From Fuerstiella sp. (lineage in GTDB: Bacteria > Planctomycetota > Planctomycetia > Planctomycetales > Planctomycetaceae), in NCBI GenBank assembly GCA_039974975.1, contig JBDWHY010000081.1:20764-84763 (forward strand): a DNA stretch of 64,000 nt, given 5' to 3'. The translations under genes and the position numbers were made by a program. Of this stretch, positions 5,880 to 53,457 are shown piece after piece. The notes below the pieces were generated by a model that saw nothing but the letters and a program-made list of their open reading frames with translations, was not told the origin of the DNA and did not search any database. The first letter of the stretch is position 1, and every line of letters begins with the position of its first letter.

Positions 5880-5909
5880 ACGCTCTCCTTTTTCCAATGG
5901 AATAAACTG

Positions 5910-13507: not shown

Positions 13508-13520
13508 CTACGGAATATGA

Positions 13521-22378: not shown

Positions 22379-22391
22379 CGGGTAGCAATCA

Positions 22392-30463: not shown

Positions 30464-30940
30464 TCAGTGCCTTTCATCCAGCCTTTTCAAAAGCATCTGG
30501 CAGTGATTACCAATTGCCCAAAAATCAGAAACTATTGCACACTGATGAAAGCCAAGCTTTTCAAAGAAACGAATCGTTCCTTGAAAGTGAAGCCCGGAAA
30601 CACTGGGTTCAGGAAACTGTGAGTCAATAGTCGCTGTCTTCGCAATCACCATTCGTTGCGTCGTTGCGGTTTCCAGGACTGCTTCTACCAAGCAAGAACC
30701 GACTCCGTTGCGACCTTCCATAGGGTCAATGGCAAGCCAAAGAAGTTCAATCTCAACAGAATGGCTTATCCAAACAATGAACCCATGGACCACGCAATTT
30801 GTTTCGTAAACCAAGGAGTTAAGATTCAGGAAGTCATCTGCAATGTAAGCATGAGACTCTGGAATAAAGTGTGTGCCAAGAGATGCGATGATGTCCATGA
30901 CTCGCGGCAAGTCCTGCTCGTTGCCGTTTCTAATAACCAT
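30464..30940 (-). CDS. GNAT-family N-acetyltransferase
   Basis: 158 aa. Acetyl-CoA pocket region IELLWLAIDPMEGRNGVGSCLVEAV. C-terminal FFEKLGF. Start overlaps the upstream gene's end by 11 nt. Confidence 0.8.
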   Translation of the reverse strand: MVIRNGNEQDLPRVMDIIASLGTHFIPESHAYIADDFLNLNSLVYETNCVVHGFIVWISHSVEIELLWLAIDPMEGRNGVGSCLVEAVLETATTQRMVIAKTATIDSQFPEPSVSGLHFQGTIRFFEKLGFHQCAIVSDFWAIGNHCQMLLKRLDERH

Positions 30941-31692: not shown

Positions 31693-32940
31693 TCACTTAC
31701 GAACCAAACAGCCATCACATTCTGCAAACAAACCAACAAGAAACGTTTGAAATACTTGCGACTTTTTTCGTCCAGACGATTTAAGCACATTCATGAAATT
31801 ATCAGTGAATCGTGTCATTCTGGTGAAGGCCCTGCCGTCTTTATGCTTCTCAAAAAAACCGACATCGGCGTTCAAGGAAAGCAGTTTCCTCAAATGCGAT
31901 TCTGCTCGGTCGATTCTCTTGCCGATTCGATCCCGTGTTTTCTTTGAGGCATCATTGCCAGAGGAAGCAATCACATCCAGATCAGTGGTTTCTTCAAAGA
32001 ACCGGATCGCTGCCACATCGTTGACAAGTCCCTTTTGTGACGGGATAGCTTTGCAAATCATGTAAAATGCCAGAGTCTGAATTCTCTCTCGTTGTTTGGC
32101 GGCTCCAGCAACCAAGTTTGCCCCCGCTTTCGAACTTAATTTCATTCCCTTCACGCAGTTGATGGAAAACAATTCTACTCTTGAGCCGTCTGATACGAAT
32201 GCAGTGAATTTCAGCCGATTATCGTGCTCTGTCCAGTCTATTTCGAATCGTAAGTCCCGGACATCCGATCGAGCTCTTTCCTCTAAGAGAATCGAACGGT
32301 CGACAAGTGAGTGGAGTCGATGCTCGTAATTCTGCAAAAAAGAGTTCGGGAGGCAACGAGTTAACGCGGTCGCCAAATCTTGATCTAGACGTTCTGACCA
32401 GCTAGCCATCAGGATCGATTGTCGCAAAAAATATGCAATGAAACGAAGCTGTTGTGGCAGATTGGTCCAGCTGGCAGGCTCCGTTTGCGATTGGGGAAGA
32501 AAGTACAACATGGATGTTGGGCGTTTGAGCCACGCCCGCCAGATCCGAACATGTCGCGGTGTTGAGTCGTCGCTGCCAAACAGGATGGAGACGGGTTCAG
32601 CAATTTCATTCAAGCCACAGTTTCCAATCAGGTCCATATCGATTGCTGCTGGATGAGGCGATTCATTGTCCCTGTCCGGAACTTTGCAAAGCAGTTCCAC
32701 GGAAAGTATATTAGATCGCGGCAAGACGTAGTGACAATCGACAGCGTCGTTTGCCATTTCTGGTGCGAAATTGACGAACTCAGCAAAATAGACATCACCT
32801 TTTGCGATAGGCCGTTCACCTTCAGGCTCCCGGAACACAACCCCTACAATCCCTGAACAGCAGTCAAGCTCATGAGCAAGTTCTTGCAAGAAGGGACGTA
32901 TTACAGTTCCGAGGACGGCTAAGTCATTCGTTTCAGCCAT
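31693..32940 (-). CDS. hypothetical protein, 415 aa, no recognisable family
   Basis: ATG 32940 lies 1 nt after the transporter stop (32942-32944). The ORF is open from 32988. Operon position is between the transporter and the CDPS-like gene. Confidence 0.6.
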   Translation of the reverse strand: MAETNDLAVLGTVIRPFLQELAHELDCCSGIVGVVFREPEGERPIAKGDVYFAEFVNFAPEMANDAVDCHYVLPRSNILSVELLCKVPDRDNESPHPAAIDMDLIGNCGLNEIAEPVSILFGSDDSTPRHVRIWRAWLKRPTSMLYFLPQSQTEPASWTNLPQQLRFIAYFLRQSILMASWSERLDQDLATALTRCLPNSFLQNYEHRLHSLVDRSILLEERARSDVRDLRFEIDWTEHDNRLKFTAFVSDGSRVELFSINCVKGMKLSSKAGANLVAGAAKQRERIQTLAFYMICKAIPSQKGLVNDVAAIRFFEETTDLDVIASSGNDASKKTRDRIGKRIDRAESHLRKLLSLNADVGFFEKHKDGRAFTRMTRFTDNFMNVLKSSGRKKSQVFQTFLVGLFAECDGCLVRK

Positions 32941-32941
32941 G

Positions 32942-34462
32942 TCACCTGCTGCCCAATGCCGAGCCTTGCTGAGAGCTTTCAACGTCATGCTCTGAGGAAT
33001 TTACGTTCACATTCCAGCAACGGATGCTGAGAATTGCGAAAGATACAGTTGCAACACCGAGCGCCGCCGCCGGAGCGTTATATGTCCAATCCAAATTGTT
33101 GGTTAGTTTTCCGTAGAACGCACTGCACCAAGCGGCCAAGAACCCACCAGTTATCGCCACGATAGCAGCAGGGGCAGCCTTTCTCAGGTTCAAACGAGTC
33201 CTAAGAAACAAAGCCGCTCCAACCACTGGAAACACGGCGAGTTGGGCACCATAAATAGCGAATATTAGTTGAACAACGTCAAAGCGAATGAGATGCAGTG
33301 TGGCAAACAGGCCAAAAGATACAACGGCAATCGTCCCGAGTGCTATTCTGGATAACTGCACTGCTTTTGCATCCTCAATCTCTCGTTTATCGAGGTTGAA
33401 GGTGTCAATGACACACATTTGGCCAGCAACGAGTAACAGACTGTCGGCGGTCGTGATCATAGCGGCAAAAAGGCCGAGCATCAACATGCCAAGAATCAGC
33501 AGGCCGATGCCCCGGCTTTCTGCGAGTTCGGAGACGATAAAGTTCATGAGGGTTGTCTCGCCCGGGACAAAACCGCCTGTGTAGATCGCAAGGCTCGAGA
33601 GGATGCAGCTAAACAAAATCAGCGAGCCCCACAAGACGACGAACAACTTGATTGCAGACTTCAGCCCAGATTGTGCTGCATCAACACTCTTTACGGCACA
33701 GAGACGGTGCCATGTGCCAGCATCACTAATCGCAGCAGGCACATTCATCACAATGATGCCGACGACGAATGACGAGGAGGCTGACCAGTCGGAGAACACA
33801 TTCTGCATGATCTTCGGCCAGGGCACTGGGGCTACAGTGCGGTAATCCAAGAACAGAACGGTGATTGGCAGCATGAGAATAGCGACAACAATAAATCGAA
33901 AATGCCACTGCTCGGTCGCAACGACTGCTTTGAATCCAGCGATGATGCTGTACGCCACCAAGAAGAGAAGATAGAGCACGGCAAATGCGATTGACCAGTC
34001 TCCAAGGAACGGGTTGAGAATACTCACGCCCACTAACAACTCCATCGCGAAGATGCTGACATATCCGACAAAAGTGAAAAGCAACGCCACACGTTTCACA
34101 TATTTGCTTGAGTAGGCAGTACCAAGAAATGATTGCAGCGTTTCGTTCGTCGGGTTTTGCGAAAGGACATAGGGAACTGCGAGGTACAAGACGCAGAAGC
34201 CCACTGCGTACGAGGCGATTGTTACGAACAGTCCAAGGCCCACGTAGGGCGCCAGATTGACCAATGCAAGAATGACGGTCGCTAGCGAAAGGCCAGAAGA
34301 AACAGTACTGCGTGAGTAAGTGTCAGCTTGAATATGCCGAGTCAAGGGAAAGAACGAAGCAAGCGAATTGACTTGCTTCGATTCTCTGAGAGCTAGTCTG
34401 AAGTACAGAACGGCCGGGACAATGATTGCGGCGAAGACCACATAGTAAGCTGATGTATTCAT
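32942..34462 (-). CDS. sodium:solute symporter (SSS)-like polytopic transporter
   Basis: 506 aa with about 13 TM helices. SSS-like stretches (ETLQSFLGTAYSSKYVKRVALLF; VAYSIIAGFKAVVATEQWHF). Confidence 0.65.
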   Translation of the reverse strand: MNTSAYYVVFAAIIVPAVLYFRLALRESKQVNSLASFFPLTRHIQADTYSRSTVSSGLSLATVILALVNLAPYVGLGLFVTIASYAVGFCVLYLAVPYVLSQNPTNETLQSFLGTAYSSKYVKRVALLFTFVGYVSIFAMELLVGVSILNPFLGDWSIAFAVLYLLFLVAYSIIAGFKAVVATEQWHFRFIVVAILMLPITVLFLDYRTVAPVPWPKIMQNVFSDWSASSSFVVGIIVMNVPAAISDAGTWHRLCAVKSVDAAQSGLKSAIKLFVVLWGSLILFSCILSSLAIYTGGFVPGETTLMNFIVSELAESRGIGLLILGMLMLGLFAAMITTADSLLLVAGQMCVIDTFNLDKREIEDAKAVQLSRIALGTIAVVSFGLFATLHLIRFDVVQLIFAIYGAQLAVFPVVGAALFLRTRLNLRKAAPAAIVAITGGFLAAWCSAFYGKLTNNLDWTYNAPAAALGVATVSFAILSIRCWNVNVNSSEHDVESSQQGSALGSR

Positions 34463-35421: not shown

Positions 35422-37002
35422 ATGACGCGATTTACATTGGGACGATTTGCAAGTGTATTCCTGCCGACGCTGATCTTGGCAGGAGGTGGCCAAGCCACTT
35501 TGGCGAAGGACTACGTCGCAGTTATCGACACTTCCGCATCGATGAAAGCTGATAGCAAACTTAAATATGCGATTGCTGGAGTCGAAACATTCTCAGCACT
35601 CCTGCAACCGGATGACACACTGCACGTAATCTCATTCAACACATCCTCGACGATTGACGGACCATTCGAGATGGCCGAGGATCGCGAGCAGCTCGCGAAG
35701 ACCACTTCACGATTAAGAGCGACGGGCGGCACAGATTACCTACAGGCGTTGCAAGCCCTGGCACACTCAGAAGGACCTATTCACACTGTTTTCCTGTCTG
35801 ACGGTGCCCACATGGGTGAGCCAGATGATGTGATCAACTACGTGGAACAGCATCTCGCCGATCAAGTGACGATTCATACGATCTCCGTTGGTTGCCCAAA
35901 GGGATCAAACGCAGAACGGCTGTTGAGCCGGATGGCGGTTGTCACAGATGGGTCGCACAGTCGCGTGGAATCCAGTGAGGAGCTTGTCCGGACTTTCCTG
36001 CGGATCGCAATGCAGACACGAGAGTACCGTGGTTTCGAACCATCGAAAGACGAAGTGACAATCAGCGGTCTGCAGGGGAGTGTGCTGGCGTTCGCTTACG
36101 ACGGAGAACCGAGCCTCTCCGTGCCAGTCGAGCGTAGTCGCCAATTCAGGTTGCCAGGGGAAACCGTGAGCCTCGCGGTTGCCAGTCCTTCTGCGGGCGA
36201 GACAGTGGTCGTCAAGCTGCTTGAACGAGCTTCGCCCACTGCCCGGTTGGGCGCAGTTTACACGGATGGGTTGCCCACCCACAAATTGACCATTCTGAAC
36301 CATAGTAGTAGCTATGAGGCAGGCACAGAACTCTCCCTCCTCACTCATTTCCATCATCCAGAATCCAAACGCCCTGTTCCGGTCACCAGCGGGGCTTCAG
36401 CAGAGGTTGAACTGCTTGATGACAGCGGGAATTCAGTTAGCAAGGTCCGTCTGGATTCAGAAGGAGATGCCCTTCGAGGCGTGTTAATGCTGCCCCAAAG
36501 CGAGGGTGTGTGCCAGCTTCGTGTGTCTTCAGTCTGGGAGGTCGATGGTAAACCGTTTGTGCAAATTTCCGAAACAGCAATCATCGTGACCCCTCCGGCT
36601 GTTCAGCCAACTCCAACGCCCCCGAAGAAACCTGCTCCGCAGGAAGAGCCGAAAGTAGAGACGAACCCAGAGTTGTTTTCTGCTTCTCAAAGCCAATTCG
36701 AACTCACCGCTCCTGCCGACGACGTCGTCCGTTTTCAGCTAACTTTTTCGCCGCTGCCAAATCACACGGGAGCAACAAAGCTGACCGCAGATTTTGCAGA
36801 GTTCACGGGCGGCGATGTGGCACAGGACATCATCACGAATGTGAAGTGGGCGCCTTCTGCGACCATTCGCGGAGCCAAGGGGAAGGTAAAACTAGACGCC
36901 GCAATCCTGAGCCCACCAGTCGCTGGAGTTTATAAGTCGACGCTCACGATTAGTGGCAAAAATCAGTCTCTTGATATTCCGGTAACGCTCACAGTCAAGT
37001 GA
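35422..37002 (+). CDS. secreted von Willebrand factor A (vWA) domain protein
   Basis: Signal peptide MTRFTLGRFASVFLPTLILAGGGQATLA. Complete MIDAS (DTSAS, ATGGTDY, LSDGA). Pro-rich linker and a C-terminal beta-rich domain. The ORF is open from 35332. Confidence 0.8.
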   Translation: MTRFTLGRFASVFLPTLILAGGGQATLAKDYVAVIDTSASMKADSKLKYAIAGVETFSALLQPDDTLHVISFNTSSTIDGPFEMAEDREQLAKTTSRLRATGGTDYLQALQALAHSEGPIHTVFLSDGAHMGEPDDVINYVEQHLADQVTIHTISVGCPKGSNAERLLSRMAVVTDGSHSRVESSEELVRTFLRIAMQTREYRGFEPSKDEVTISGLQGSVLAFAYDGEPSLSVPVERSRQFRLPGETVSLAVASPSAGETVVVKLLERASPTARLGAVYTDGLPTHKLTILNHSSSYEAGTELSLLTHFHHPESKRPVPVTSGASAEVELLDDSGNSVSKVRLDSEGDALRGVLMLPQSEGVCQLRVSSVWEVDGKPFVQISETAIIVTPPAVQPTPTPPKKPAPQEEPKVETNPELFSASQSQFELTAPADDVVRFQLTFSPLPNHTGATKLTADFAEFTGGDVAQDIITNVKWAPSATIRGAKGKVKLDAAILSPPVAGVYKSTLTISGKNQSLDIPVTLTVK

Positions 37003-37091
37003 TGTAATCCGGCTTTTTTACGGCTGTCACTCCCAACTGCGGGAGAAATATGCGCAGACGTTTATTCAGTTCTTGTTCGAAAGGGAAAATA

Positions 37092-39998
37092 ATGAGAATC
37101 GCCTTGGTGTTGAGTGTCTTCCTATGGGGGTCGGTGGCCTGTGGGCAGGACGATCGCGAGTTGCTGCTGGTTTTGGCTGATCGGTCAGACTCCACGCGAT
37201 CATGGGATCCTCCTGAGCAGACGCTAGCTGTCTTGCGACATGTGGTGAATGTGGCGTCGCTGACAGACAGACAAATTGACGTGGCCGTCATCACCTTCGG
37301 CAACACGGTGCAGGTATTCGGTGACGAGCAAGGACGACCGACAGCGGCTTTCGACACCCTGCTTGCCCGTCTGGAAAAGAATTGGCCCGAAGCTGGTGGA
37401 GGGACACCACTTGACAGTGCGTTTGAAAAGGCAGTCCAGCTTTATCGGCAGGCTCAGTGTCGTACGACGATAATCCTGCTGACCGACGGTCAGCCTGCGA
37501 GTGGCTTTCTTCAGCCTGATCGGTTCTCTGAAGTACGTCAGAAGATCGACACCATGCGTGAATTGGTTGTCAACAGGTACGTCGAAGACGGAATGACATT
37601 TCTGACTCGAAAGCTGAAGAGCTTCGATGATGATCTGGAAAATCCGGAATCAGATCTGTTTCAGAAGCTTTATCTCACTCAACAAAAGGCTGAAGTGCAG
37701 TTGGTCTTGAAGCTTGCCAAACAGCTCAACCAGAGCAACGTTCGCTTCATTACCTTTGACCATTCGGGAATAGAAATCCTCGAGGAGATTCACTCGACAG
37801 CAGGCGGCCGCGTCGAAGATTTTGTTCGGACGGAACCGGGCAACCTGTTGCCATCACTGAACGAGGTGTTCACGCTGCCGGGTGTAGTTCAGGCTCAACC
37901 CATTCAGCTCGAAGCAGACGATAGCGTTTGCGAAAGTGAACTGCAGATCAAGACCGATCCGATTGCCCAGTCGATTTACACTGCAATCGAGTTCCGCCCG
38001 GCCATCACCGACTTTGCGGCTCACTGTGAACTCAGTATAGAAACGGCTGGAGGAATTCTTCAGTTCGATCCCTTCAACTCCACTGCGGAAACCTCGTTGG
38101 GTCGCAATGGAGTCGGCAGTGTTGTCACTGCCAATATGAGGCTGAGTTTTATCCCTGATGGAGAAGAGCTGACTGTCCGGTGGCTGAGTCCGAATGGAAC
38201 TATGACGTCCCCCGCCGCGACGGCTTACACCTACCTCAAGTTGCGAGACGACGTTGTCGCAGATTTCCGACCTGTCCATTTGCCAATGGACCACAGACCG
38301 CCCTTCGATGTTGCCGCAGAGCAGTTGTTCGCTTATTCATTTGCATTGAGGACAAGAGACAACAAAGAGCAATTTCCGATCGAATCGGCTGAAGCAGTTC
38401 TCCGGTCTCGGTCCACCGTGATTCGGCTGCCAATGTCGGCGTCGCAGAAACATCCGGGAACAGTTGTCAGCGAAGATAAATCGTTACCGCCCGGCACGTG
38501 GGACGTTGAAGTAAATGTCCGAACGGAGTCGGGGCTGGATCTGAGACTCTCCCTTCCGCAGCATCTGACGACATCTTTGCGAGATCGCAAAATTCTGATG
38601 CGACTGCCACTGGGGGCATCTGACGAAACACAGGTCAGTGATTCTCAGAGTCACCTGAATTTCGGACTCCTGAACGATGCACAAACGACTCGTACATTAG
38701 AGTTCCTGGTCTCGCCCGACGGTTTTGATCTGCCGGTGGAAGTGGAATTCACGGCGAGCTTTGTTGATGCGGAGGGTAACAATCCGTCGCAATCATGGGT
38801 GTCGTTTCGCAAGCAGAAGATGACTCTGCGGCCCGGGAAGACAGAAACTCAACAAGTCACGATTGCCCTGCCTGACGAAGTCGATGGTTCGATTATCGAT
38901 GGGTTGCTATCGGGCGGCATTGAAGTCCGCCTGTCTGACTCTGGAATGCGTCTTCCGATTGAGCGTTCCGAAGTCATCGCCGATGGCAACGACATTCCCC
39001 CTGAGCAAATCACGTTCGAACTGAAGCGGCCCACCCTGACAGTCGAGCTTCCGTGGGCGGGGAGGAATCGTATCGAGGAAACTCGATACGGCGAACAGGC
39101 GATCCTGAATATCGACATCAACACGGGATTTACGCGAGAGGTTGAGTTCGTTGTTTTCGACAATGGGAACGTTGAGAAGCAATTGCGACTCCTACCGGGC
39201 TCCAGCGTTGTTGACAAGAACGGAGCTGTCGTCGGCACTCTTCGACTGGGATCGACTGCGCAGTCGGAAGTCATGCAGACTCTGGCTCCTGGAGAACAGG
39301 TGACCTGGACACTTCGGTTGGAAGTTGATCCTGATCACGTCGTCGAAGAAGCGAGCACCCACATTGATATTGCTGGAGACGGGATCGCACACAGACGCAT
39401 TCCGATTCGAATTTTTCAGCGGCAGCCATTGCTGAATGGCCTTGTGGAATGGACAGTCTGGAGTCTTCTCGGCGGTCTCGTCCTGTATTTAATTCGAATG
39501 CTTGCCCGGCGGCGTCAACTGAATCGTCTGACGACAGATGCGGAGCCCGTGCTGACGGAACGCCGAGGGCTAAGCGGCATCCTGTCCTTGGAGACACTGG
39601 GACCAGGAGTGGTAGCCCTCGTTCCTGATGTTCCCATGGAGCGGCTCTCCGAATCTGGGTCAGTCTTTCGTAATTTCCAACCCGGTCAACCAATCCGATT
39701 GCAGCAGAATACGGAGGATGATGCTGTTCTGATTCGCGTCCCACAGGTGGATGTCCCGAGGGATGACGACGACCCCTTAACCTTCGAAGTCGTGACCATT
39801 GATGCCAACGATGACCGACCCGAAGTCGAGATTGCAATTCTCGATGGCGGACACTTCGACGACCAAAATCGCCGATGTACACGACGCCTGAGTGCAGCTT
39901 TCGTCCTTGCGATGCTCCTTGTCGGACTTGGGCTAAGGCTGGACGAACCATCGGTCATCACGAGCTTGCAGTGGTACCACGACGCGCTCATACGCTGA
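37092..39998 (+). CDS. large vWA domain protein with beta-rich repeats and two C-terminal TM helices
   Basis: Signal peptide MRIALVLSVFLWGSVACG. MIDAS DRSDS, GGGTPLD, LTDGQP. TM helices WTVWSLLGGLVLYLIRML and LSAAFVLAMLLVGLGL. Confidence 0.8.
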   Translation: MRIALVLSVFLWGSVACGQDDRELLLVLADRSDSTRSWDPPEQTLAVLRHVVNVASLTDRQIDVAVITFGNTVQVFGDEQGRPTAAFDTLLARLEKNWPEAGGGTPLDSAFEKAVQLYRQAQCRTTIILLTDGQPASGFLQPDRFSEVRQKIDTMRELVVNRYVEDGMTFLTRKLKSFDDDLENPESDLFQKLYLTQQKAEVQLVLKLAKQLNQSNVRFITFDHSGIEILEEIHSTAGGRVEDFVRTEPGNLLPSLNEVFTLPGVVQAQPIQLEADDSVCESELQIKTDPIAQSIYTAIEFRPAITDFAAHCELSIETAGGILQFDPFNSTAETSLGRNGVGSVVTANMRLSFIPDGEELTVRWLSPNGTMTSPAATAYTYLKLRDDVVADFRPVHLPMDHRPPFDVAAEQLFAYSFALRTRDNKEQFPIESAEAVLRSRSTVIRLPMSASQKHPGTVVSEDKSLPPGTWDVEVNVRTESGLDLRLSLPQHLTTSLRDRKILMRLPLGASDETQVSDSQSHLNFGLLNDAQTTRTLEFLVSPDGFDLPVEVEFTASFVDAEGNNPSQSWVSFRKQKMTLRPGKTETQQVTIALPDEVDGSIIDGLLSGGIEVRLSDSGMRLPIERSEVIADGNDIPPEQITFELKRPTLTVELPWAGRNRIEETRYGEQAILNIDINTGFTREVEFVVFDNGNVEKQLRLLPGSSVVDKNGAVVGTLRLGSTAQSEVMQTLAPGEQVTWTLRLEVDPDHVVEEASTHIDIAGDGIAHRRIPIRIFQRQPLLNGLVEWTVWSLLGGLVLYLIRMLARRRQLNRLTTDAEPVLTERRGLSGILSLETLGPGVVALVPDVPMERLSESGSVFRNFQPGQPIRLQQNTEDDAVLIRVPQVDVPRDDDDPLTFEVVTIDANDDRPEVEIAILDGGHFDDQNRRCTRRLSAAFVLAMLLVGLGLRLDEPSVITSLQWYHDALIR

Positions 39999-40069
39999 AC
40001 CCAAACGTTCTCCTCGGCCAAAGATCTTGCTGGCCACCCCCTCTCTTTCGTCAGTTCAAAGGAAATACC

Positions 40070-41017
40070 ATGTCAACGCTCACTTCACGTTCGAATAAAA
40101 GCTCGAAGAAAAAAGAGTCTGGCCGGAAGTCTGTGAGGCCTTCATGCAGTCTGGCAGATACCAACTCTCTTGGGCTTCGGCTTCAACTTGTCGCAGGCAC
40201 CCTTCTCGTTGGGTTGGGTTCGACTGGGACGAGGATTGTTGATTGTCTGATCCGAAAAATCGTTGCTTCGGTGGGCGTGGTTCCGCCGTCTCTGGACTAC
40301 CTGATGATTGACGGGGAAGCCACCGACGATCTCTATGGTCTCGACCATTTTACCTGTGTAGGCATTGCTGGTTGCGGCACTGTCCCCAAAGAAGGCCGTG
40401 ACGCCTTTCTCAAAATATACCCGGAGCTGCTAAAGACGTTCGAAGCCATGCTTCTGCGACTGGATACCACCTCAATTCATATGCCTGCTGCCGTATCACC
40501 AAAGACGTGTGTCGAGGCATGGGTTTTCGCAGGAAACGGAGGCAGTTCCGGCGGCATGCAGCAGCCATGCATCACACTCCTGAACGAAGTCATGCGGAAA
40601 CGACGTATCAAAACACCGCGGATCCACACCGTGTTTCTCGGTGCGGACATGCCAATGAATGATGCTTCACGTAGTACGACAGACAGTCAAATCGAGATCA
40701 CAGCCAGCACCGCCTATTCCAACATCCGAAGGATGGTTTCAGAGCACTGGATGCCTCAAAAAATTCATGATGAATCTCCGACTGGTGGTACCACCCTTCC
40801 CGCCGGCGGTCGCCTTGAGTCTGTGAGCTTTATGGATCAAAGCAACGGCAGACACCAGCTTGGCACAACAGATGAACTGATTGAGATGGTTGCGTCGGCC
40901 TACTTCGCAGCCATCTGCACTCATGCGTCTGTCTCCGTCTCTGCTCGAATGATTGACCTGGAAAAGACCGGCGACACGGTTCGTGCTTTCTGCTCGGCAC
41001 ATGGCATTTCGCACTGA
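40070..41017 (+). CDS. tubulin/FtsZ-superfamily GTPase-like protein (bacterial tubulin-like family, N-terminal part)
   Basis: LLVGLGSTGTRIV (T1-like loop), YLMIDGEATDDL, GCGTVPKEGRDAFL, VFAGNGGSSGGM (T4 GGGTGSG-like). Basic Ser/Lys-rich N-terminal tail. ATG 40070 preferred; the ORF is open from 39875. Confidence 0.6.
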   Translation: MSTLTSRSNKSSKKKESGRKSVRPSCSLADTNSLGLRLQLVAGTLLVGLGSTGTRIVDCLIRKIVASVGVVPPSLDYLMIDGEATDDLYGLDHFTCVGIAGCGTVPKEGRDAFLKIYPELLKTFEAMLLRLDTTSIHMPAAVSPKTCVEAWVFAGNGGSSGGMQQPCITLLNEVMRKRRIKTPRIHTVFLGADMPMNDASRSTTDSQIEITASTAYSNIRRMVSEHWMPQKIHDESPTGGTTLPAGGRLESVSFMDQSNGRHQLGTTDELIEMVASAYFAAICTHASVSVSARMIDLEKTGDTVRAFCSAHGISH

Positions 41018-41140
41018 ACAACTCGCCGACGCACCAGCGAATTCGTGAGTTTGCTGGTGTGCTTCTGAGTCAGATCACACCGACTGCCGAAGTTCTTCAA
41101 ACGCAGTTTCGCTTATCCACCATCACTACAGGGGTTTCTG

Positions 41141-43312
41141 ATGACTGATCTACTAACACCGACAGACTACGGTCGCAATGTCCCAAAGAATGCTCGCAGT
41201 ACCGGTGCCGTCGAATTGTTCTTTCCTCTGTCGCAACTGCTCAAACAGTTCACAGGTCAGTTCCTTTTCGAAAGCCTGGCTCACCTGAAAAAGGGGAAGC
41301 CGATCCCGGACGAAACGCAAGAGCTGGAGAAACAGGATGTCTCATCGGATCTCGTTGAGTTTCGAGAGATCTCCGGCTGCCCTCTCCCTCCCGACTTAAA
41401 GTGGGATGGGACACAGCGAGGATTAACAAAACTACTTCATCTGATTGATGACCTGAAAAACAATGATGGAAGTTGGCGAGAATCGCTGACTGCCTACCTG
41501 CCAGAAATCGACGAATTCGAATCTCGCCTGCGAAAGCGAATCACGGTGGCCATCGAAGCGTTTCATGCTGGTTTTGGAGTAGCAGCTGCTCTGAAAATCG
41601 TGGGGTTCGTGGAAGCAAAGGTAAGGAACGACCAGACGATTCGTGAACAGAAGGGGCTGCCGTCTTTTGAAGGATTGCTCCGTCCTCTGTCTCAACCTGA
41701 AAGACGAGTTCGCACCATAGCCAAAAAGCCCAACCTGGCTATCAGAGCGGTTGGAAAGGTGAATGATCGGATCTCAGTTGGTCGCCTGTATCCGGCACGG
41801 CAGCGAAGCCAGATCGCGTCACTGGTCAAAGCAGGATCTCAACTTCAGGCTGCTCGATTCCATGCCCTCTTGCAGCCTGTTCTGTCCGACGTCGCGATTC
41901 GAATGCTGGGCGACGGTCATTCGATCGGTTGGTTGCACGACATTGAGGAAGAACTTGAGAACGGACAGACCGGTCTTTCGGCATTGGAAGACGCCCTGGA
42001 AACACCAGAACAAGATCCACCTCCGTCGTCGGTCGCTCGATTGCCGCTGGTGGACGGGCTTGACACGGAGCTCGACCGAAACACGGGACACACCCTGCTC
42101 GAAGAATTTCATCTTCGGGCCCGAAGCGTCCGTCGAACGCCGCAACGTTTGGCTCAACATCTCCACAAGAATGGTGTGACCATAGATGGCACTCGGATAC
42201 ACCCTCATCAGTGGAGTGAAATCCCAACGCAGACACTCAGTCGTGCCCTGCTGACTGTGACGGAAAAGTTTCTGGGATGTCACGATATTTCGAAGCCCCT
42301 GAGGCCTGAGGATCCCAAAACAGCTGCCGACGCGATTTCCCAGTTGCACCTTCTGCATCCTTTGCTGCGACCGAGGCTGCAGGTCATGCTCCGTGTGGTC
42401 GTGGAACGCTCAGGGCCATACGCCGAATTCGACCAAATGCAGGGGGAACACACCAATATCCAGTCATATCTTTACTGCGATCCAAACCACCGCAAACCGC
42501 TGATCGACATGCTGTCACGGCAAACGGTAAACATCGCTGAGGCCAGTCGAGCCGAAAAGTACGCGACGGGCCATCCGTATTCAATGCTGCTGCTGCAACA
42601 CCAGATTTGTGCGTCGCTCTGTACAATGCCGGCCGTTCATCGCTGGTCGCAACTGAATAATCGAATGATCCGCAACGGACAAGTTCAGCCGCTGGAAAAG
42701 CGGTTTCGCTATCCCGAAATTCGCCTGCTCAAGCAGCGAGTTCGCGACGATGACGACAATCGAAAGCTATTCGAGGCAGCAAAGGCCGCCGGGGCTGTCG
42801 TTCAGATCGGCTCGACAAATCACTGGACGGTGACACAGCCTGATCTTCGTTTGTCGGAGCTATTCGCTCCATCAAACTGGATCCCGAAGCTTCTGTCGGC
42901 ATCGCAGATATTGTTGTTGGTACGCAACGATCCTGATTTCCGAGCATTCCTGATCGCCCAGTTTCTCTCAGTATCAAATCTGAACATCGAGCTGGAACGA
43001 TTTCGCGAGGAGCACGATGCTCGAGCCGTTGCTCAGGAACTTACGAAATGGGGCGTCCTTCGCTCGGATGCGGAACGGTACTCAGTGAATACAACGTTTG
43101 ATTCGTTCCCGAAACGAGCCCCCCGCGAAATCGTAAAGCGTCGCCCCGGCAAAATCGTTGGTCTTTCGGAAGATGTATTTCTGTCCGCGATGGCCACCCA
43201 TGACCTGCTCTACACCATTTTGTTCTTTGCTGTCACCGATGCCTGGCAACTGAATGAAATCCCAACACGGCAGGTGCCGGATTCCGTCAAGGACTTTGCA
43301 ATCACTCTTTAA
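41141..43312 (+). CDS. large hypothetical protein, probably the C-terminal extension of the tubulin-like family protein
   Basis: 723 aa in the same reading frame as 40070-41017, separated from it only by TGA 41015-41017 and TGA 41066-41068. No family motif recognised. Confidence 0.6.
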   Translation: MTDLLTPTDYGRNVPKNARSTGAVELFFPLSQLLKQFTGQFLFESLAHLKKGKPIPDETQELEKQDVSSDLVEFREISGCPLPPDLKWDGTQRGLTKLLHLIDDLKNNDGSWRESLTAYLPEIDEFESRLRKRITVAIEAFHAGFGVAAALKIVGFVEAKVRNDQTIREQKGLPSFEGLLRPLSQPERRVRTIAKKPNLAIRAVGKVNDRISVGRLYPARQRSQIASLVKAGSQLQAARFHALLQPVLSDVAIRMLGDGHSIGWLHDIEEELENGQTGLSALEDALETPEQDPPPSSVARLPLVDGLDTELDRNTGHTLLEEFHLRARSVRRTPQRLAQHLHKNGVTIDGTRIHPHQWSEIPTQTLSRALLTVTEKFLGCHDISKPLRPEDPKTAADAISQLHLLHPLLRPRLQVMLRVVVERSGPYAEFDQMQGEHTNIQSYLYCDPNHRKPLIDMLSRQTVNIAEASRAEKYATGHPYSMLLLQHQICASLCTMPAVHRWSQLNNRMIRNGQVQPLEKRFRYPEIRLLKQRVRDDDDNRKLFEAAKAAGAVVQIGSTNHWTVTQPDLRLSELFAPSNWIPKLLSASQILLLVRNDPDFRAFLIAQFLSVSNLNIELERFREEHDARAVAQELTKWGVLRSDAERYSVNTTFDSFPKRAPREIVKRRPGKIVGLSEDVFLSAMATHDLLYTILFFAVTDAWQLNEIPTRQVPDSVKDFAITL

Positions 43313-43392
43313 CGCTCACGACTGCAACAGGTGTGCACTTTGAGAGCCGTCCTATGGGCCGCTCATGACTTCGACACGCAGGTAAAACACCG

Positions 43393-44259
43393 ATGGCCAG
43401 CTCATTGACTTCTATCGCTCGATTATTGGATTCGTTTGATCTTTGGAATGGATTCCTACTTGCTGTGACGCTGCACATAGTAGGTGCATGTTGCAGTCAG
43501 TCCCGAACCGAACTGCAGCAGATAGCCCGACGAATTGGATTCAGTGTCTTCCTGATTCTCCTGTTGGCAAACCTGATTCACGACGGCTCATTGCACTCAC
43601 TCATCTCCAGAATATTTCAGGCGGGCGTCCTTACGTGGATTGCGGCTGGGTCTGCGAAGATTCTGATTCCTGTCGTTGCCACATTGGCTGATGGCTGGTC
43701 TCGATCGCATTCGCAGAGTCTCGCAGGAAAGCGCTCAGCAAAACAGAAACGGTTACAAATCCGTCAGGCGAAGCTCCAGGAGGAGCAACGCCGAAGGCGA
43801 GACGAAGATTGGGAAGCTGGTCGCGAGGAACGGGAGCAGGCTGCAGAGGAAGCCAGACAGCAGAAGCAGGCTGAATTGGACCGCTCACGAGAGGAACAGA
43901 AACGCCGAGAGGTTGCAAGATTCGAGGTGCGTCTTCTCTTCGATCGTCACGCTGGTGACATTCGAACATCCATACCTCGCCGCCGATTTGATGAGTACAT
44001 CGAATCTGATCTCAGTGACAAGTATCCCGCTGAAACGGTGGAGCAACGTGCTCAGCAGATGAAGCAAACCATCCTCGACTTCTTCGAATCGAGTGAACCC
44101 GAAACCAAGAACACACCGGAAGCAATCGATTCTCACTACGAGGCGGAGCTCGAACGAATTTCTCAACTTGGCCTCGATGACGAATCGACCGCTGCTATGC
44201 GTTCGGAATTGGCTTTCGCATGGCATCGGTCAAAGCAGTCAGGAAAGATTGTTCTATGA
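43393..44259 (+). CDS. membrane protein with about 3 TM helices and a highly charged coiled-coil domain
   Basis: TM segments in the first 100 aa, then a KQKRLQIRQAKLQEEQRRRRDEDWEAGREEREQAAEEARQQKQAELDRSREEQKRRE stretch. ATGA overlap with the next gene. Confidence 0.7.
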   Translation: MASSLTSIARLLDSFDLWNGFLLAVTLHIVGACCSQSRTELQQIARRIGFSVFLILLLANLIHDGSLHSLISRIFQAGVLTWIAAGSAKILIPVVATLADGWSRSHSQSLAGKRSAKQKRLQIRQAKLQEEQRRRRDEDWEAGREEREQAAEEARQQKQAELDRSREEQKRREVARFEVRLLFDRHAGDIRTSIPRRRFDEYIESDLSDKYPAETVEQRAQQMKQTILDFFESSEPETKNTPEAIDSHYEAELERISQLGLDDESTAAMRSELAFAWHRSKQSGKIVL

Positions 44260-46013
44260 ATATTTTTCTCGGAAGCAACAGTAAAACGAATCGTGCGGTG
44301 TGGCTCAACACTCTCTTGCTTCGGACTCATCTCCACTTGATTGGAGCGACCGGGACGGGGAAAAGTTCAGCCATCGTCACTTTGTTTCGTTCGCTGATGT
44401 TGCAACCCAAGAAGGACAAAGCGGCCATTTTCGTCATTGACCCGCTGGGAAATCTGTCGCGAGACCTTTTGGCGGTGATCGCTCACCCAACCTGGTCGAA
44501 TGACGATGTTCGCGACAGACTGGTCTACATCGAACCAGCCCGTGAAGACGTTGTCGTTCCATTTAACCCTTTGCTGCACACGACGGAAGGCAATCGCTAT
44601 TTCCGTGTCAGTCGGGCGATGACTATCGTATTGCGGGCCTTTCAAGCTCAAGATTTGTCACAACAACCTCGATTGGCCAGGTGGCTGTTTAATTCGTTTA
44701 TGACAGCGGCTGCGATGGGAATCCCAATTGCTGCCTGCGAATACCTGCTGGTTCCGGGATCACCGGAACACAAAGCAATCCTGCTTCGAATGCCCGAAAG
44801 TTACCGAGTGGAATGGAACGACATTCTTCGTTCCAACTCCCAGGCGTTGCAGACACTGGATTCAACACGAAATCGACTGCAGCCGTTCTTCAAATCACCG
44901 ATATTGAAACGGATGTTCGGAGTCCACGAGAGTCACTTCAACTGTGAGCGTTTCATTCGTGAACGCAAAATCGTGATACTCAACCTGGGCAGCTACGGCA
45001 AACTTGCAGAACGCGATGGTGACACCATTGGTGCAATGGCGTTCAACGAGATCATTGAGGTGGCGCGGCAAATGGCAACTGACTGTGGTCGAGACGTCGT
45101 CGAACCTACGTACGTATTCCTCGATGAATTCTCTCGTTTCGTGGGACCCGATGTAGCCGACGCGATCGCGACGGTTCGGCAGATGGGATTGAGATGCGTA
45201 TTTGCCCATCAATCATTTTCGCAGCTTGAAAAGGGCGACGTGGATCTCACACAAATGATTTACCAGGCACGTTCTCGACTAGTCTTTGCAAACAGCGGAG
45301 AAGACGCCGATCGTTGTGCCTACGAACTGGCACGCCTGACATTTGATCCAAAGGAAGTAAAAGAAGAGCGATACTCGTGGAAGCAACTGATCATGGGCTA
45401 TCGCAAAGATTGGCTCAAAAACCATTCCCAATCAAGCACACGGTCGCAGGCAGAGGCTTCCAACCGATCGTCCAGTGAAAACGAATCTCGATCTCACCAC
45501 ACAGAACAGGACGGATCCTCTCATAATATTGGAGAGAGCCACGTTCAGGCTACCAGCAACACTTCGGGATTGAGCAATGGTGATTCGACGGGGGAGAGCC
45601 AAGTGAATGTCCCGATTCACAAGACGTTTCGGGAACTGGCCAGTCGTGAATATCAAAGTCTGCCTGAATACGAAGTCGAATGGGGTCAGCGTATTCGGCG
45701 ACTGAAAGTGGGTGAAGCTTTCTGGCAGGAGGCGGAAGCCGAATCGGTTCCCAAGATCCAGGTGGACTATGTGCCCATTGAACAGGATCAAGAAACTCGT
45801 CTCCGAGTTGAAGCCTTGATTGAACGGAATTTCAAGACGGATGTCTTCATTACGGCGGACGAAGCTGACCACGAAGTCGAGGCATGCCGTCAACAACTAC
45901 TTGGGTGCGATCCGATGCCATTCGAAAGAGAGATCCAGACTCGCGACTATCCGAAATCGCCCGATCAAGGGGATGCGGATACGTCTCCCGGTGACCCGCC
46001 GTTCACACTGTGA
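44256..46013 (+). CDS. FtsK/HerA/TraD-superfamily P-loop ATPase (T4CP-like), paralog of 28306-30432
   Basis: Walker A LIGATGTGKSS about 30 aa from the start, DPLGNLSRDLL, Walker B YVFLDEFSRF, FAHQSFSQL. Ser-rich disordered region near the C-terminus. Confidence 0.75.
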   Translation: MNIFLGSNSKTNRAVWLNTLLLRTHLHLIGATGTGKSSAIVTLFRSLMLQPKKDKAAIFVIDPLGNLSRDLLAVIAHPTWSNDDVRDRLVYIEPAREDVVVPFNPLLHTTEGNRYFRVSRAMTIVLRAFQAQDLSQQPRLARWLFNSFMTAAAMGIPIAACEYLLVPGSPEHKAILLRMPESYRVEWNDILRSNSQALQTLDSTRNRLQPFFKSPILKRMFGVHESHFNCERFIRERKIVILNLGSYGKLAERDGDTIGAMAFNEIIEVARQMATDCGRDVVEPTYVFLDEFSRFVGPDVADAIATVRQMGLRCVFAHQSFSQLEKGDVDLTQMIYQARSRLVFANSGEDADRCAYELARLTFDPKEVKEERYSWKQLIMGYRKDWLKNHSQSSTRSQAEASNRSSSENESRSHHTEQDGSSHNIGESHVQATSNTSGLSNGDSTGESQVNVPIHKTFRELASREYQSLPEYEVEWGQRIRRLKVGEAFWQEAEAESVPKIQVDYVPIEQDQETRLRVEALIERNFKTDVFITADEADHEVEACRQQLLGCDPMPFEREIQTRDYPKSPDQGDADTSPGDPPFTL

Positions 46014-46372
46014 ACATTTTGCATGCTGCGAGCGTGTGCCAGTGCTGCGGCTTCATGCAGGGTGAGGCCGCCGTGCTGTGACACGTCTTCGAGAACCTCC
46101 TGGAATTCATTTCGATCGAAAGCCGAAACTCCAAATTCAAGGACATGATTCATTTCAAAGCGAATGCGAGCTGCTTCCTGAGTGATCCGATCTTTAATGG
46201 CCTCTAGCTGTTTTCGCTGAGCCTCGATACGAGCCGCTGATTCGCTTAGAAATTTCAAGTGGCGAATTGCTTCTCCTCTTCGCAGCGCCCGACCGACTCC
46301 GGTAAACGCGCTGTATTTTGTCTGCAGGTCCGGGGCGACGCCATCAAGTGGTTGAGATTCTGGTTGATTCAC
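45965..46372 (-). CDS. hypothetical coiled-coil protein (weak)
   Basis: 135-aa ORF that converges on and overlaps the ATPase 3' end by 49 nt. Non-repetitive, helical-looking sequence. No family recognised. Confidence 0.3.
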   Translation of the reverse strand: MNQPESQPLDGVAPDLQTKYSAFTGVGRALRRGEAIRHLKFLSESAARIEAQRKQLEAIKDRITQEAARIRFEMNHVLEFGVSAFDRNEFQEVLEDVSQHGGLTLHEAAALAHARSMQNVHSVNGGSPGDVSASP

Positions 46373-47853: not shown

Positions 47854-48563
47854 GCAACGGCTATTGGGGAATTGGTCGACGACGTCATTTAAACGGCAAA
47901 CCGTTGGCGACGATGTCAGTGGAAGAGCCCGTAAAAAGAAATGTGACTCAATCGATTTTGGACTTGAAATTTTGGGGTTGGATTCTTCTAATGAAGGCAC
48001 TGCGAATGATGAATCAGCTTCAACTGGCATTCCCGACACGGTTTGGCGGTTGCCTGAGAACTCATTCACAGTTCCTCGCTTTGCGAGGCTATCACTTTCC
48101 CCCTTTGACGATGCGAAAACTTTTTCGTTTGTTCATTCGACTTGCAAAGTGGAATGGACGGATCATCAAACGGTACGTTCGACTGGTCGAATCGACCAGA
48201 AGGCCTGTGACCAACGGCAAGCCCGGCCAGATGACACCTGGTATCGGACTTGAAGTCTCACTGCTGAGCGTTTCCGTTGCACTTGGAGCTGGGCACTTAG
48301 TGCTTTTCTTCCGAGCTTAAGGAGAGAGTGCCACACAACTGGTCTGCGTGTCAACCAGATTGTGCGGAGGTCAGGCGGACTCACCGGAGATGTCGCAAGA
48401 CATTGTAGGTGACAACACTGACTGATACTGCAGTCTCAATGAGGCTGAACTCTCATCGGGAAGCGACGCTCCGTCGCTTCTCACTTTTTCGACATTCATC
48501 GGTGCCGCTGCGCCTGATGAATGAGAGTTCCTGCGTAAGCCCATTGATCGACGGACGACTTCG

Positions 48564-49445
48564 ATGCCCATGATTCTTCAGCCGAGAGACATTCGCGTCC
48601 TCTCTCACTTCGCACGCTATTTCATGCTGACTTCGCGGCAGGTCCGTGAACTGGAATTCTCAGGTGACACAACGGGACGCGCGACCCGCCGCCGTCTGAC
48701 GCTGATGGCGAAAGAAGGTTATCTTCGGAAACGAAATCTGTACGTCGTCAATCCGAAAGATGGGGCCGCGACTCCCGTGTATCACTTGGATAGAACGGGC
48801 CGCGATTTTCTTGCTGGTCACTTCGACGACGATTGCCTGCGTTTACTACCGATTGAACCATCGCAGCCGCAACATCTCTATCATTACGTGGCCGTTGCCG
48901 AATCTCACCGTATCTTTGATCAAGCTATCACGGTCACCAGTGAGAAGGTGACGATTCCTCGCTGGTACAACGAAGACGAAATCATTAATCCGGAAGTCGA
49001 GCGAGCCGGTGATCGACGCTACCTACGAACCGACTTTAATGAGTCGCCCAAGGTTGTCTGTATTCCCGACGCCGCGTTCCTTGTTGAGTACAACAGGCAC
49101 AAAATCGCAATCTACCTTGAGCAGGATCGGGACTCATTTTTCCATGATAGAGTTGCGGCCAGGAAGAGTCGTGGCTACGAGCGACTGCTTGCTTCAAAGG
49201 GACACCGTCGACATTTCCCTGACTCCACGGTCGACTTTTTCTATGTGATGTTTATTGCTCCGACTTCACGACGCGCCGATCAGTTGTGCCGAGCTTTCAA
49301 GAAGCGGAACGGCGACTCCGAAGCCGCGAAAGTTTACCGTTTTGCATCTCTTAATGAGATCACCCCGAACGATCTGTTGTTTGAACCCGTCCTTCGACAT
49401 TGCCATCGCGATGAGAAAGTTTCGCTGATTACACGGATTGAATGA
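48564..49445 (+). CDS. replication-relaxation (Replic_Relax) family protein, second copy
   Basis: LQPRDIRVLSHFARYFMLTSRQVRELEF...RRRLTLMAKEGYL winged-helix N-terminus. Same layout as 27037-27921. Confidence 0.7.
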   Translation: MPMILQPRDIRVLSHFARYFMLTSRQVRELEFSGDTTGRATRRRLTLMAKEGYLRKRNLYVVNPKDGAATPVYHLDRTGRDFLAGHFDDDCLRLLPIEPSQPQHLYHYVAVAESHRIFDQAITVTSEKVTIPRWYNEDEIINPEVERAGDRRYLRTDFNESPKVVCIPDAAFLVEYNRHKIAIYLEQDRDSFFHDRVAARKSRGYERLLASKGHRRHFPDSTVDFFYVMFIAPTSRRADQLCRAFKKRNGDSEAAKVYRFASLNEITPNDLLFEPVLRHCHRDEKVSLITRIE

Positions 49446-51762: not shown

Positions 51763-51809
51763 TCGCACCCTCTCCACCTGTTTCCTGTATTTGATTCAAG
51801 GAGATCTTG

Positions 51810-53457
<1,648 letters not shown>

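Follow-up and report, generated by a model that had tools for sequence, protein, structure and literature searches.

A two-gene tubulin-like protein encoded with vWA proteins and a coupling-type ATPase beside a relaxase gene on planctomycete integrative elements: a candidate module for DNA transfer

The stretch of DNA analyzed here (the window, 64 kb in all) comes from a metagenome-assembled genome (MAG) of Fuerstiella sp. (Planctomycetaceae, Planctomycetota), and it carries a cluster of six ORFs (open reading frames), designated g1 to g6, in which two von Willebrand factor A (vWA) proteins are encoded together with a tubulin/FtsZ-like protein in two genes, a transmembrane (TM) coiled-coil protein and an ATPase of the type IV secretion system (T4SS) coupling-protein type. 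The cluster may be an uncharacterized DNA-transfer or membrane-remodeling machine. The preferred reading, to which a probability of roughly 0.4 is assigned, is that it represents a backbone module of integrative plasmid-like elements of Planctomycetota and would encode an envelope-spanning machine for transfer of the element's DNA; this reading is favored because the order of g1–g6 is strict, a Replic_Relax (relaxase) gene follows g6 at every locus where enough sequence is available, and an integrase gene is linked to the cluster. The genes, with the features predicted for their products, are as follows.

g1, 35422-37002, plus strand: 526 aa, secreted/periplasmic vWA protein
g2, 37092-39998, plus strand: 968 aa, membrane-anchored vWA protein
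g3, 40070-41017, plus strand: 315 aa, tubulin/FtsZ-like GTPase domain protein
g4, 41141-43312, plus strand: 723 aa, alpha-helical partner of g3 without known domain
g5, 43393-44259, plus strand: 288 aa, inner-membrane protein with TM helices and a charged coil
g6, 44256-46013, plus strand: 585 aa, soluble FtsK/HerA-superfamily ATPase of the T4SS coupling-protein type
s7, 45965-46372, minus strand: 135 aa, small convergent conserved gene

All six ORFs of the cluster lie tightly spaced on one strand, as an earlier note made from the letters of this DNA had described: the intergenic gaps are 89 nt (g1/g2), 71 nt (g2/g3), 123 nt (g3/g4) and 80 nt (g4/g5), g5 and g6 overlap by 4 nt (ATGA), and transcription of g1–g6 as a single unit is plausible. 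Promoter and terminator scans of the cluster returned background level only and are thus uninformative; the sole suggestive terminator-type site is a weak hairpin at the g6 stop (46001-46015). Comparison with the orthologs of locus L001 (L001–L017 denote loci with homologs) gives dN/dS values of 0.09–0.27 for g1–g5 and, for g6, a pN of 0.19 with a pS of 0.80, which is saturated; the purifying selection on g1–g6 indicates that these are functional genes. The small gene s7 overlaps the 3' end of g6 by 49 nt and has homologs in the same place in L001 (62% identity), L003, L006 and L010 (pairwise E of 1e-9 to 1e-18 among the last three), with no match in Pfam or PADLOC. Products identical to proteins of the window are deposited as hypothetical proteins ABJZ55_10970/10975 (Fuerstiella sp. 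MAG).

The order g1–g6 is conserved in L001–L004, L006–L008, L010, L013, L015 and L017, within a comparison sample of ~12 loci, some of them closely related and most of them short metagenomic contigs. Identity of g3 to that of the window and the extent of each locus are listed here.

L001: g3 77% identical; all six genes
L004: g3 56% identical; contig ends within g6
L002: g3 53% identical; all six genes
L003: g3 36% identical; all six genes
L015: all six genes
L006: g3 34% identical; contig starts within g2
L007 (Planctomycetaceae MAG): g3 33% identical; g2 in three ORFs, and a trypsin-like peptidase gene between g4 and g5
L008: g3 27% identical; all six genes
L010: g3 and g4 fused; order otherwise unchanged
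L013: g3 distant; contig ends within the ORF at the g4 position
L017: g3 distant; contig ends after g4

Synteny is strict in every locus with enough sequence, down to ~27% g3 identity; thus the six genes do co-occur, a point on which the proposals of the earlier note had hung. Genes g5 and g6 follow g4 in the same order and with short gaps at 10 of 10 loci with enough sequence, and the short g3 subfamily is found only in this gene context. The sole exception is L011, where a g4 homolog (60% identity, 2-1861) is followed by S1-domain and chemotaxis genes with no g5 or g6; this homolog may be a remnant. In L007 the g2 fragments (7123-9874) and the peptidase gene (13117-14118) suggest that the cluster there may be decaying or modified.

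All six of the loci with at least 1 kb of sequence downstream of g6 have a Replic_Relax gene there, at a distance of 0.2–0.6 kb in L003, L007, L008, L010 and L015 and of 2.5 kb in the window, and an integrase gene lies further downstream in the window, L008 and L015. Pfam Replic_Relax (PF13814) corresponds to the MOBC relaxase class (PMC5357655), and both Replic_Relax products of the window (27037-27921 and 48564-49445), which have no pairwise similarity to each other, are predicted to be MOBC-class relaxase-like proteins. SprT/ArdC-like genes lie upstream of g1 in L003 and L015, and most of the DNA that separates host-like or ArdC/SprT-type genes from the relaxase/integrase end in L008, L010 and L015 belongs to the cluster. 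A relaxase/integrase-adjacent position that is conserved across diverged elements is typical of backbone and not of cargo. Comparison of the window with L001 leads to the same view: an ATPase gene paralogous to g6 lies upstream of the cluster in both (91% identity), the region from this gene to g1 differs between the two and both of its flanks are conserved; the cluster therefore behaves as backbone, and the genes around it as cargo. Inverted repeats stand just upstream of the Replic_Relax gene in L003 (16451-16487), L015 (17048-17084), L010 (16118-16150) and the window (48458-48482), and those of L003 and L015 have the sequence ATGCCGAAG.GCCC/GGGTGCCTCGGCAT in common; these repeats are weak candidates for an origin of transfer (oriT) or an operator. 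The hairpin of the window could be either the terminator of the neighboring hydrolase gene or, as a similarly weak candidate, an oriT or operator.

The earlier note had described the g6 product as an FtsK/TraD-like ATPase and as a paralog of the product of 28306-30432, and both descriptions hold. In Pfam it matches TrwB_AAD_bind at 36.1 bits (gathering score 20.5), TraG-D_C at 23.5 (22) and T4SS-DNA_transf at 19.6 (20.1), together with DUF87 and FtsK_SpoIIIE; seven of seven g6 orthologs match the same five models (best value for T4SS-DNA_transf, 1.6e-14). Profile search of PDB returns IcmO/DotL, HerA, EccC, TrwB and FtsK, NCBIfam gives only weak matches of the VirD4/TraD/EccC type, and among PLSDB entries the nearest relative is a DUF87 ATPase of 1025 aa encoded by pNOB8, a conjugative plasmid of archaea. 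Identity to the product of 28306-30432 is 25% over 308 aa (E 3e-9), so that the two are distant paralogs. The Walker A (GATGTGKS) and Walker B (LDEF) motifs are both invariant, and the protein further has an S-rich linker, a C-terminal domain and a conserved terminal PF. Hydropathy reveals no hydrophobic segment before Walker A (residue 30) and no TM helix in the first ~150 aa; a marginal hydrophobic segment is present at aa 148–166. The protein is thus predicted to be a coupling-protein-type ATPase without a membrane anchor of its own, which g5 could supply in trans. The g5 product, described before as a TM coiled-coil protein, indeed has about 3 (2–3) TM helices within its first 100 aa, followed by a helical stalk rich in R, E, K and Q and by a helical C-terminal domain, and its TM segments and architecture are conserved at only 17–24% identity. 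The overlap of the g5 stop with the g6 start is also present in L003, L004, L007 and L010.

The assignment of g3 to the tubulin superfamily, which had been made from its nucleotide loops and from a resemblance to Tubulin_2, stands on several lines of evidence. Both glycine loops, LLVGLGSTGTRIV and VFAGNGGSSGGM, are present, and their glycines are invariant across 12 homologs; in these 12 sequences T1 (GLGSTG; G48, G50, G53) and T4 (GNGGSSGG; G155, G157, G158, G161, G162) are invariant or nearly so, and they align with GLGGTG and GGTGSG of FtsZl1, the g3 T4 loop being a variant (GGSSGG). The Pfam match to Tubulin_2 (PF13809) reaches 26.5 bits against a gathering score of 27 and covers profile positions 1–41 only; among g3 orthologs the scores are 27.5 (L006), 28.7 (L008) and 44.6 bits (the fused protein P0037 of L010), and 16–22 bits for the others. 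When the 12 g3 homologs are compared by HHalign with 11 undoubted members of Tubulin_2, whose Pfam E values lie between 1e-42 and 1e-58, the probability is 98.9% and the E is 3.6e-17 over 262 aligned columns. The AlphaFold2 (AF2) model of g3 (pLDDT 72.8, pTM 0.75) was compared with PDB by Foldseek, and the top 34 matches are all FtsZ, tubulin, CetZ, TubZ or PhuZ (best E 4e-5), in agreement with the fold expected from the earlier note; the TM-scores of these matches are only 0.36–0.48, indicating that the core is shared and that the C-terminal half is divergent. The best structure matches in a viral library include annotated phage tubulins (putative tubulin-like protein, PhuZ). Profile search with g3 returns no PDB sequence, so that the kinship is visible only by fold and by profile-profile comparison. 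The alignment of 12 sequences contains no evident conserved NxDxxD/E-like (T7) motif after the long central helix; DQSNG (256–260) is invariant, and the N-terminal tail is disordered and mostly basic. Because of the HHalign and AF2/Foldseek matches, g3 is taken to be a divergent short branch of FtsZl1/Tubulin_2.

The single polypeptide of ~1000 aa by which the Tubulin_2 family is recognized is here divided over two genes, g3 and g4, which lie in the same frame with two stop codons between them. The earlier note was correct in calling this tubulin split, but the split is not a local break; the two-gene form is the norm of the subfamily. Close g3 homologs are all of 312–339 aa, and among 58 representatives (E < 1e-30) the full-length ones have ~290–350 aa, the rest being shorter fragments, with one fused. 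A pseudogene origin of g3/g4 was considered and ruled out, since the homologs are all short and under purifying selection. Across loci g4 always stands after g3, with a spacing that ranges from a 128-nt gap to a 4-nt overlap, and in L010 the two occur as a natural fusion of 1020 aa (P0037), residues 332–1017 of which align with the whole of g4 (E 2e-28). This fusion and the fixed g3-g4 order identify g4 as the equivalent, in a gene of its own, of the long extension that FtsZl1 has at its C-terminus, and thereby sustain the proposal that g4 is the non-GTPase extension of g3.

By itself g4 is less informative. Pfam contains nothing similar to it in single or profile searches, PDB profile search gives only chance-level matches to helical bundles, and HHalign comparison with FtsZl1 C-terminal regions returns nothing significant; a collinear 30-residue match between g4 and FtsZl1 just past the GTPase domain was rejected (probability 0.8%), a synthetic fusion of g3 to the g4 N-terminus having given no support, and appending g4 to g3 does not extend the Pfam Tubulin_2 match. 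The AF2 model of g4, based on an alignment of 4 sequences of ~60% identity, is of low confidence (pLDDT 34.9, pTM 0.23). Hydropathy shows no TM helix in g3 or g4. The deposited g3 gene model (ABJZ55_10970) has 237 aa, 75% of the ORF, and leaves out the first glycine loop; since homologs of 312–339 aa keep this loop, the deposited start codon is probably miscalled.

Both vWA proteins have hydrophobic N-terminal signal sequences, as have the orthologs of each by hydropathy, and the residues of the metal-ion-dependent adhesion site (MIDAS; DxSxS...T...D) are conserved in all g1 and g2 orthologs, so that the signal peptides and complete MIDAS motifs read from the letters earlier are upheld. The vWA domain is N-terminal in each (Pfam). 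In g1 (VWA_2 6e-11, also VWA_3 and VWA; orthologs at 9 loci) the signal peptide is followed by a MIDAS-complete vWA domain at aa 32–185 and a beta-rich C-terminal part. In g2 (VWA_2 8e-9, with weak Ig-like matches to FixG_C, PKD and fn3_5) the vWA domain is followed by a long beta-rich ectodomain, a first TM helix (TM1, 783–801), a cytoplasmic loop of ~130 aa, a second helix (TM2, 933–951) and a short tail; both helices, which had been noticed before together with the loop, are kept in orthologs by hydropathy. The two proteins are accordingly predicted to be extracytoplasmic vWA/MIDAS proteins, with g2 spanning the inner membrane twice.

The history of these two genes is not uniform. Window and L001 are 91–98% identical in nucleotide sequence over ~35,900–39,400, a tract that comprises the post-vWA part of g1 and the entire g2 ectodomain and ends just before TM1, whereas identity is only 50–77% in the g1 vWA domain, the TM-loop-TM part of g2 and g3–g6; dS is 0.3–0.4 inside the high-identity tract versus at least 1.9 in the diverged set. 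The contrast in identity and dS shows that an ectodomain cassette was exchanged between diverged elements. Recombination breakpoints lie inside g1 and g2 (one of them just before TM1), with none between g4 and g5. Unlike the g1/g2 ectodomain segment, the cytoplasmic loop of g2 diverges in step with g3–g6; a history shared with the cytoplasmic proteins fits contact of this loop with g3–g6, and the exchange fits a role of the g1/g2 ectodomains as a specificity module. The mosaicism of window and L001 leaves the function of the system undecided.

The g3 family, and with it the module, is very rare. Word-seeded search with g3 gave 12 matches among 5.8 billion proteins, and an exhaustive HMMER scan of 1.84 billion cluster representatives gave 95 matches, 58 of them at E < 1e-30; there is one locus among 185,579 GTDB species representatives, in a Planctomycetaceae MAG, and two g3-family loci were found in a JGI metagenome scan. 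Searches of IMG/VR and of PLSDB plasmids with g3 gave zero matches, and homology search seeded with the g4 alignment added zero proteins.

Around the cluster, the window contains the following features of the element.

Resolvase gene, at 11230
RadC gene, at 11885
ArdC-like protein gene, at 14039
ParB/ParA genes, 15019-16714
Iterons, 16990-17305: at least 6 copies of a CGACGGGTTACGGAC-type repeat, just upstream of the Rep gene
RPA-family Rep gene, 17445-19034
Fic-domain protein gene, 19880-20515, plus strand: PADLOC candidate PDC-S04, 6.9e-53
IetA AAA ATPase gene, 21335-22378, plus strand: PADLOC 4.5e-72
IetS subtilase gene, 22392-25055, plus strand: PADLOC 7.4e-55
Toprim protein gene, at 25789
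First Replic_Relax gene, 27037-27921, plus strand: PF13814 at 45.6 bits, gathering score 25.3
Paralogous DUF87/TrwB-type ATPase gene, 28306-30432, plus strand: Pfam
Cyclodipeptide-synthase-like protein gene, 30930-31622, minus strand: Pfam CDPS at 25.9 bits, gathering score 27
Two unannotated ORFs, 31693-34462: the longer one looks multi-pass membrane; with the CDPS-like gene they are variable cargo between the paralogous ATPase gene and g1
Hydrolase gene, at 47095
Hairpin with 11-bp stem, 48458-48482, plus strand: ~80 nt upstream of the relaxase gene
Second Replic_Relax gene, 48564-49445, plus strand: PF13814 at 51.0 bits, gathering score 25.3
Tyrosine integrase gene, 51807-53144, plus strand: Pfam Phage_integrase 2.3e-13
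tmRNA gene, 53102-53457, minus strand: ARAGORN

With its RPA-family Rep, iterons, ParAB and ArdC the island is predicted to be an integrated plasmid-like element; planctomycete plasmids likewise have RPA-family Rep, iterons and type I partition (bioRxiv 10.1101/2024.01.22.576637). The integrase ORF extends 43 nt into the 3' end of the tmRNA gene, which is probably where the element integrated; this 3' end was found only once within the window, and the far boundary of the island is therefore undefined. The genes at 21335-25055 are predicted to form an IetAS anti-phage system carried as cargo. No VirB4 or other mating-pair formation (MPF) domain is found by Pfam in ORFs of at least 180 aa between 9.9 and 53 kb.

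Other features of the window are recorded here as observations. A perfect 18-nt palindrome, GAGTTTCCCGGGGAAACT, occurs both upstream of the iterons and Rep gene (16816-16833) and inside the paralogous ATPase gene (29189-29206). A CusB/CusA-type heavy-metal efflux pair is followed by the gene for a TRASH-domain protein (442-7880), which contains an internal 300-nt direct repeat of 74% identity (6015-6680), and the G+C content falls from 0.56 to 0.50 at ~6 kb.

How such a cluster might serve DNA transfer can be outlined from gene context. The relaxase would nick the excised element and would be recruited by a hexamer of g6 held at the membrane by g5. On the cytoplasmic face g3/g4 would assemble in a GTP-dependent manner, dock on the g2 loop and organize or remodel the membrane there. 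Through the metal-ion sites of their ectodomains, g1/g2 would bind a ligand in the periplasm, in the outer membrane or on the recipient cell, and would thereby provide a contact or conduit for which a VirB-type mating apparatus serves elsewhere. Both the joining of the cluster proteins in one complex and its service to DNA transfer are what we infer from these arrangements.

Several further observations favor the transfer reading, beyond the synteny and the linkage to relaxase and integrase genes. All g6 orthologs match T4SS coupling-protein models, with a conjugative plasmid supplying the nearest plasmid relative, and the g5/g6 start-stop overlap is conserved. VirB4/MPF domains are absent from the island ORFs searched (at least 180 aa), and the Rep gene with its iterons, ParAB and ArdC mark DNA that replicates and enters new cells. 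The ectodomain segment has been swapped while the g2 loop diverges with g3–g6, no defence family is matched beyond a generic NTPase, and the cluster accounts for most of the stretch from the host-like or ArdC/SprT-type genes to the relaxase/integrase end of L008, L010 and L015. The reading is also favored because planctomycete chromosomes often have a relaxase with a coupling protein and no complete MPF, no native conjugation being known in the group (bioRxiv 10.1101/2024.01.22.576637).

Other points weigh against it. No component of the cluster resembles a channel, a pilin or VirB4, and VirB4 is universal in known conjugative T4SS; nor do we know of any role of tubulin-like proteins in conjugation. 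Relaxase and coupling protein together are the normal kit of mobilizable elements that borrow a helper apparatus (CloDF13), and since these two are enough for helper mobilization g1–g5 could do something else. The g4 protein has no assignable fold in its AF2 model or in PDB profile searches. For the FtsZl1-vWA operons found elsewhere, which have no link to DNA transfer, a part in membrane remodeling or conflict has been predicted (PMC2875224; PMC7159879). All functional links rest on gene context, in ~12 loci that are partly close kin and mostly known from short metagenomic contigs. The proposal of a transfer apparatus in the earlier note is thus favored by the relaxase/integrase context and, in the absence of a channel or VirB4, stays a matter of inference. 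Its most specific form, a mating or DNA-export apparatus independent of VirB4 in which g3/g4 would remodel the inner membrane at the g1/g2 site and g5-anchored g6 would load relaxase-bound DNA into a bridge, tube or vesicle, is speculative and judged improbable.

Ranked by confidence, the transfer reading is followed by a conflict or exclusion system, then by two adjoining modules and, far behind, by partition of the TubZ type, a remainder of the probability being left unassigned. The first of these alternatives, unlikely but the best placed, is a variant of the tubulin-vWA systems of Kaur et al. that the element would carry for conflict, defence or exclusion, and in which the vWA proteins would sense an invader or a surface perturbation, the tubulin-like GTPase would assemble as a threshold switch or effector, and the FtsK/HerA-type ATPase would act on foreign DNA or block competing elements. 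HerA/FtsK-type ATPases occur in defence systems, and the only PADLOC match in the cluster is the generic NTPase match of g6 (mad8, 7e-12; HerA models), which its paralog at 28306-30432 shares (mad8, 9.5e-17). Membership in MADS, an eight-gene mad operon that includes the methylation components of its name, is ruled out, however, because mad8 is an NTPase model and no other mad model matches the cluster genes; moreover, g6 is best matched by coupling-protein models. The composition of the cluster, a tubulin with two vWA proteins of which one is an extracellular vWA protein with TM helices, is that of PMC7159879 section 29, but the GTPase of GAP1 type that defines those systems is undetectable by Pfam, NCBIfam or PADLOC, and there is no recognizable toxin or nuclease effector. 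Exchange of the ectodomain cassette would suit an arms race, and other defence genes (IetAS and the Fic/PDC-S04 gene) are carried on the island; against this, the relaxase/integrase-adjacent position kept across deeply diverged elements is backbone-like. The defence-cargo hypothesis of the earlier note is therefore weakened: defence cargo does exist on the island, elsewhere than in the cluster.

Somewhat more doubtful is the view that two unrelated modules merely adjoin, g1–g4 being an FtsZl1-vWA membrane-remodeling system (e.g., for vesicle or envelope biogenesis benefiting host or element) and g5–g6 with the relaxase a DNA transfer and replication (Dtr) module that uses a helper apparatus. 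Mobilizable plasmids are known in which a MOBC relaxase has a coupling protein of its own (CloDF13), the g4 homolog of L011 has no g5/g6 behind it, and the mosaic of window and L001 shows that segments are exchangeable; the breakpoints of that mosaic, however, fall within g1 and g2 and not at g4/g5. FtsZl1-vWA operons are widespread without a coupling protein (PMC2875224), whereas the short g3 subfamily occurs only with its present neighbors, g5 and g6 standing after g4 in each of the ten loci with enough sequence.

Segregation or maintenance of the excised element by a tubulin-like polymer of the TubZ type, which would draw on the plasmid-segregating role of plasmid-borne TubZ and RepX (PMC2875224), on the TubZ entries among the g3 Foldseek matches and on the basic disordered tail of g3, is very unlikely, as the element already encodes ParA/ParB, g3 groups with Tubulin_2 and not TubZ, partition has no use for a coupling ATPase or for vWA proteins in the periplasm, and no TubR-like gene or centromere repeats lie beside g3.

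Few members of the tubulin superfamily are as divergent as the FtsZl1/Tubulin_2 proteins, to which no function has been assigned since 2010; the short g3 subfamily places them in a testable context, a mobile element on which they are accompanied by a relaxase, an integrase and a coupling ATPase. Many members of Planctomycetota lack FtsZ. If the module moves DNA, it would be a new type of transfer machinery and would explain the spread of such elements; if it is a conflict or membrane-remodeling system, it would offer a first handle on what tubulin-vWA systems do. An export apparatus independent of VirB4, if real, would for the first time give a tubulin homolog a role in horizontal DNA transfer, and Planctomycetota a native transfer system.

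Comparison with known systems begins with those operons in which FtsZl1 was defined by Makarova and Koonin in 2010, together with MIDAS-intact vWA proteins, kinases, a P-loop GTPase and OmpA-like proteins (PMC2875224); the machine for membrane remodeling that they predicted from these operons is a computational prediction (PMC2875224). Like them, the cluster has a tubulin-like GTPase beside MIDAS-intact vWA proteins with signal peptides or TM segments (PMC2875224), a coiled-coil/alpha-helical region after the GTPase, and membrane proteins in the operon. Unlike FtsZl1, its tubulin-like protein is encoded by two genes (315 + 723 aa) in nearly all members, and its helical part has no detectable similarity to FtsZl1 C-termini; a kinase, OmpA or P-loop GTPase partner is lacking, and in their place the mobile element provides an ATPase of the T4SS coupling type, a coiled-coil protein with TM helices, an integrase and a MOBC-class relaxase. 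The small conserved gene s7 is a further addition.

Kaur et al. (2020) described neighborhoods of the GAP1-N2 GTPase with a tubulin and two vWA proteins and predicted them to be NTP-dependent conflict systems (PMC7159879, section 29). The cluster shares with them a helically extended tubulin, and two vWA proteins, one of them membrane-bound and provided with an extracellular vWA domain and a beta-rich region (PMC7159879). It differs in that no GAP1-type (TRAFAC-class) or zinc-ribbon GTPase was found in it with Pfam, NCBIfam or PADLOC, and in that it has as partner an NTPase of the FtsK/HerA coupling type and is itself linked to a relaxase; those tubulin neighborhoods were reported from Firmicutes and Actinobacteria, whereas the cluster of the window is from Planctomycetota.

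As in Dtr modules (TrwB/VirD4/TraD with relaxases), g6 has the nucleotide-binding core and a relaxase neighbor, and genes for an integrase, Rep, ParAB and ArdC are present on the element; unlike in those modules, g6 lacks an N-terminal TM anchor and is embedded among vWA and tubulin-like genes, and unlike canonical conjugative T4SS the element is without detected VirB4/MPF genes (ORFs of at least 180 aa). With TubZ and PhuZ, both among its Foldseek matches, g3 has in common that it is a predicted tubulin-fold GTPase encoded by a mobile element; TubZ and PhuZ, however, form polymers in the cytoplasm that position DNA, either with TubR and a centromere as partners or with a role in the phage nucleus, and g3 belongs to a Tubulin_2 branch with envelope proteins.

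A coupling-type ATPase and a relaxase occur in neither the 2010 nor the 2020 system (PMC2875224; PMC7159879), and literature searches combining a tubulin-like protein, a relaxase and the von Willebrand domain gave nothing relevant. The earlier note's statement that no characterized system has this gene combination thus needs division: the pairing of vWA proteins with FtsZl1 had already been predicted in 2010 and 2020, whereas its link to a coupling ATPase and relaxase appears to be new. Three features set the cluster apart: the division of its tubulin-like protein over two genes, the association of this protein with a T4SS-type ATPase and a MOBC relaxase, and the location in integrative elements of planctomycetes.

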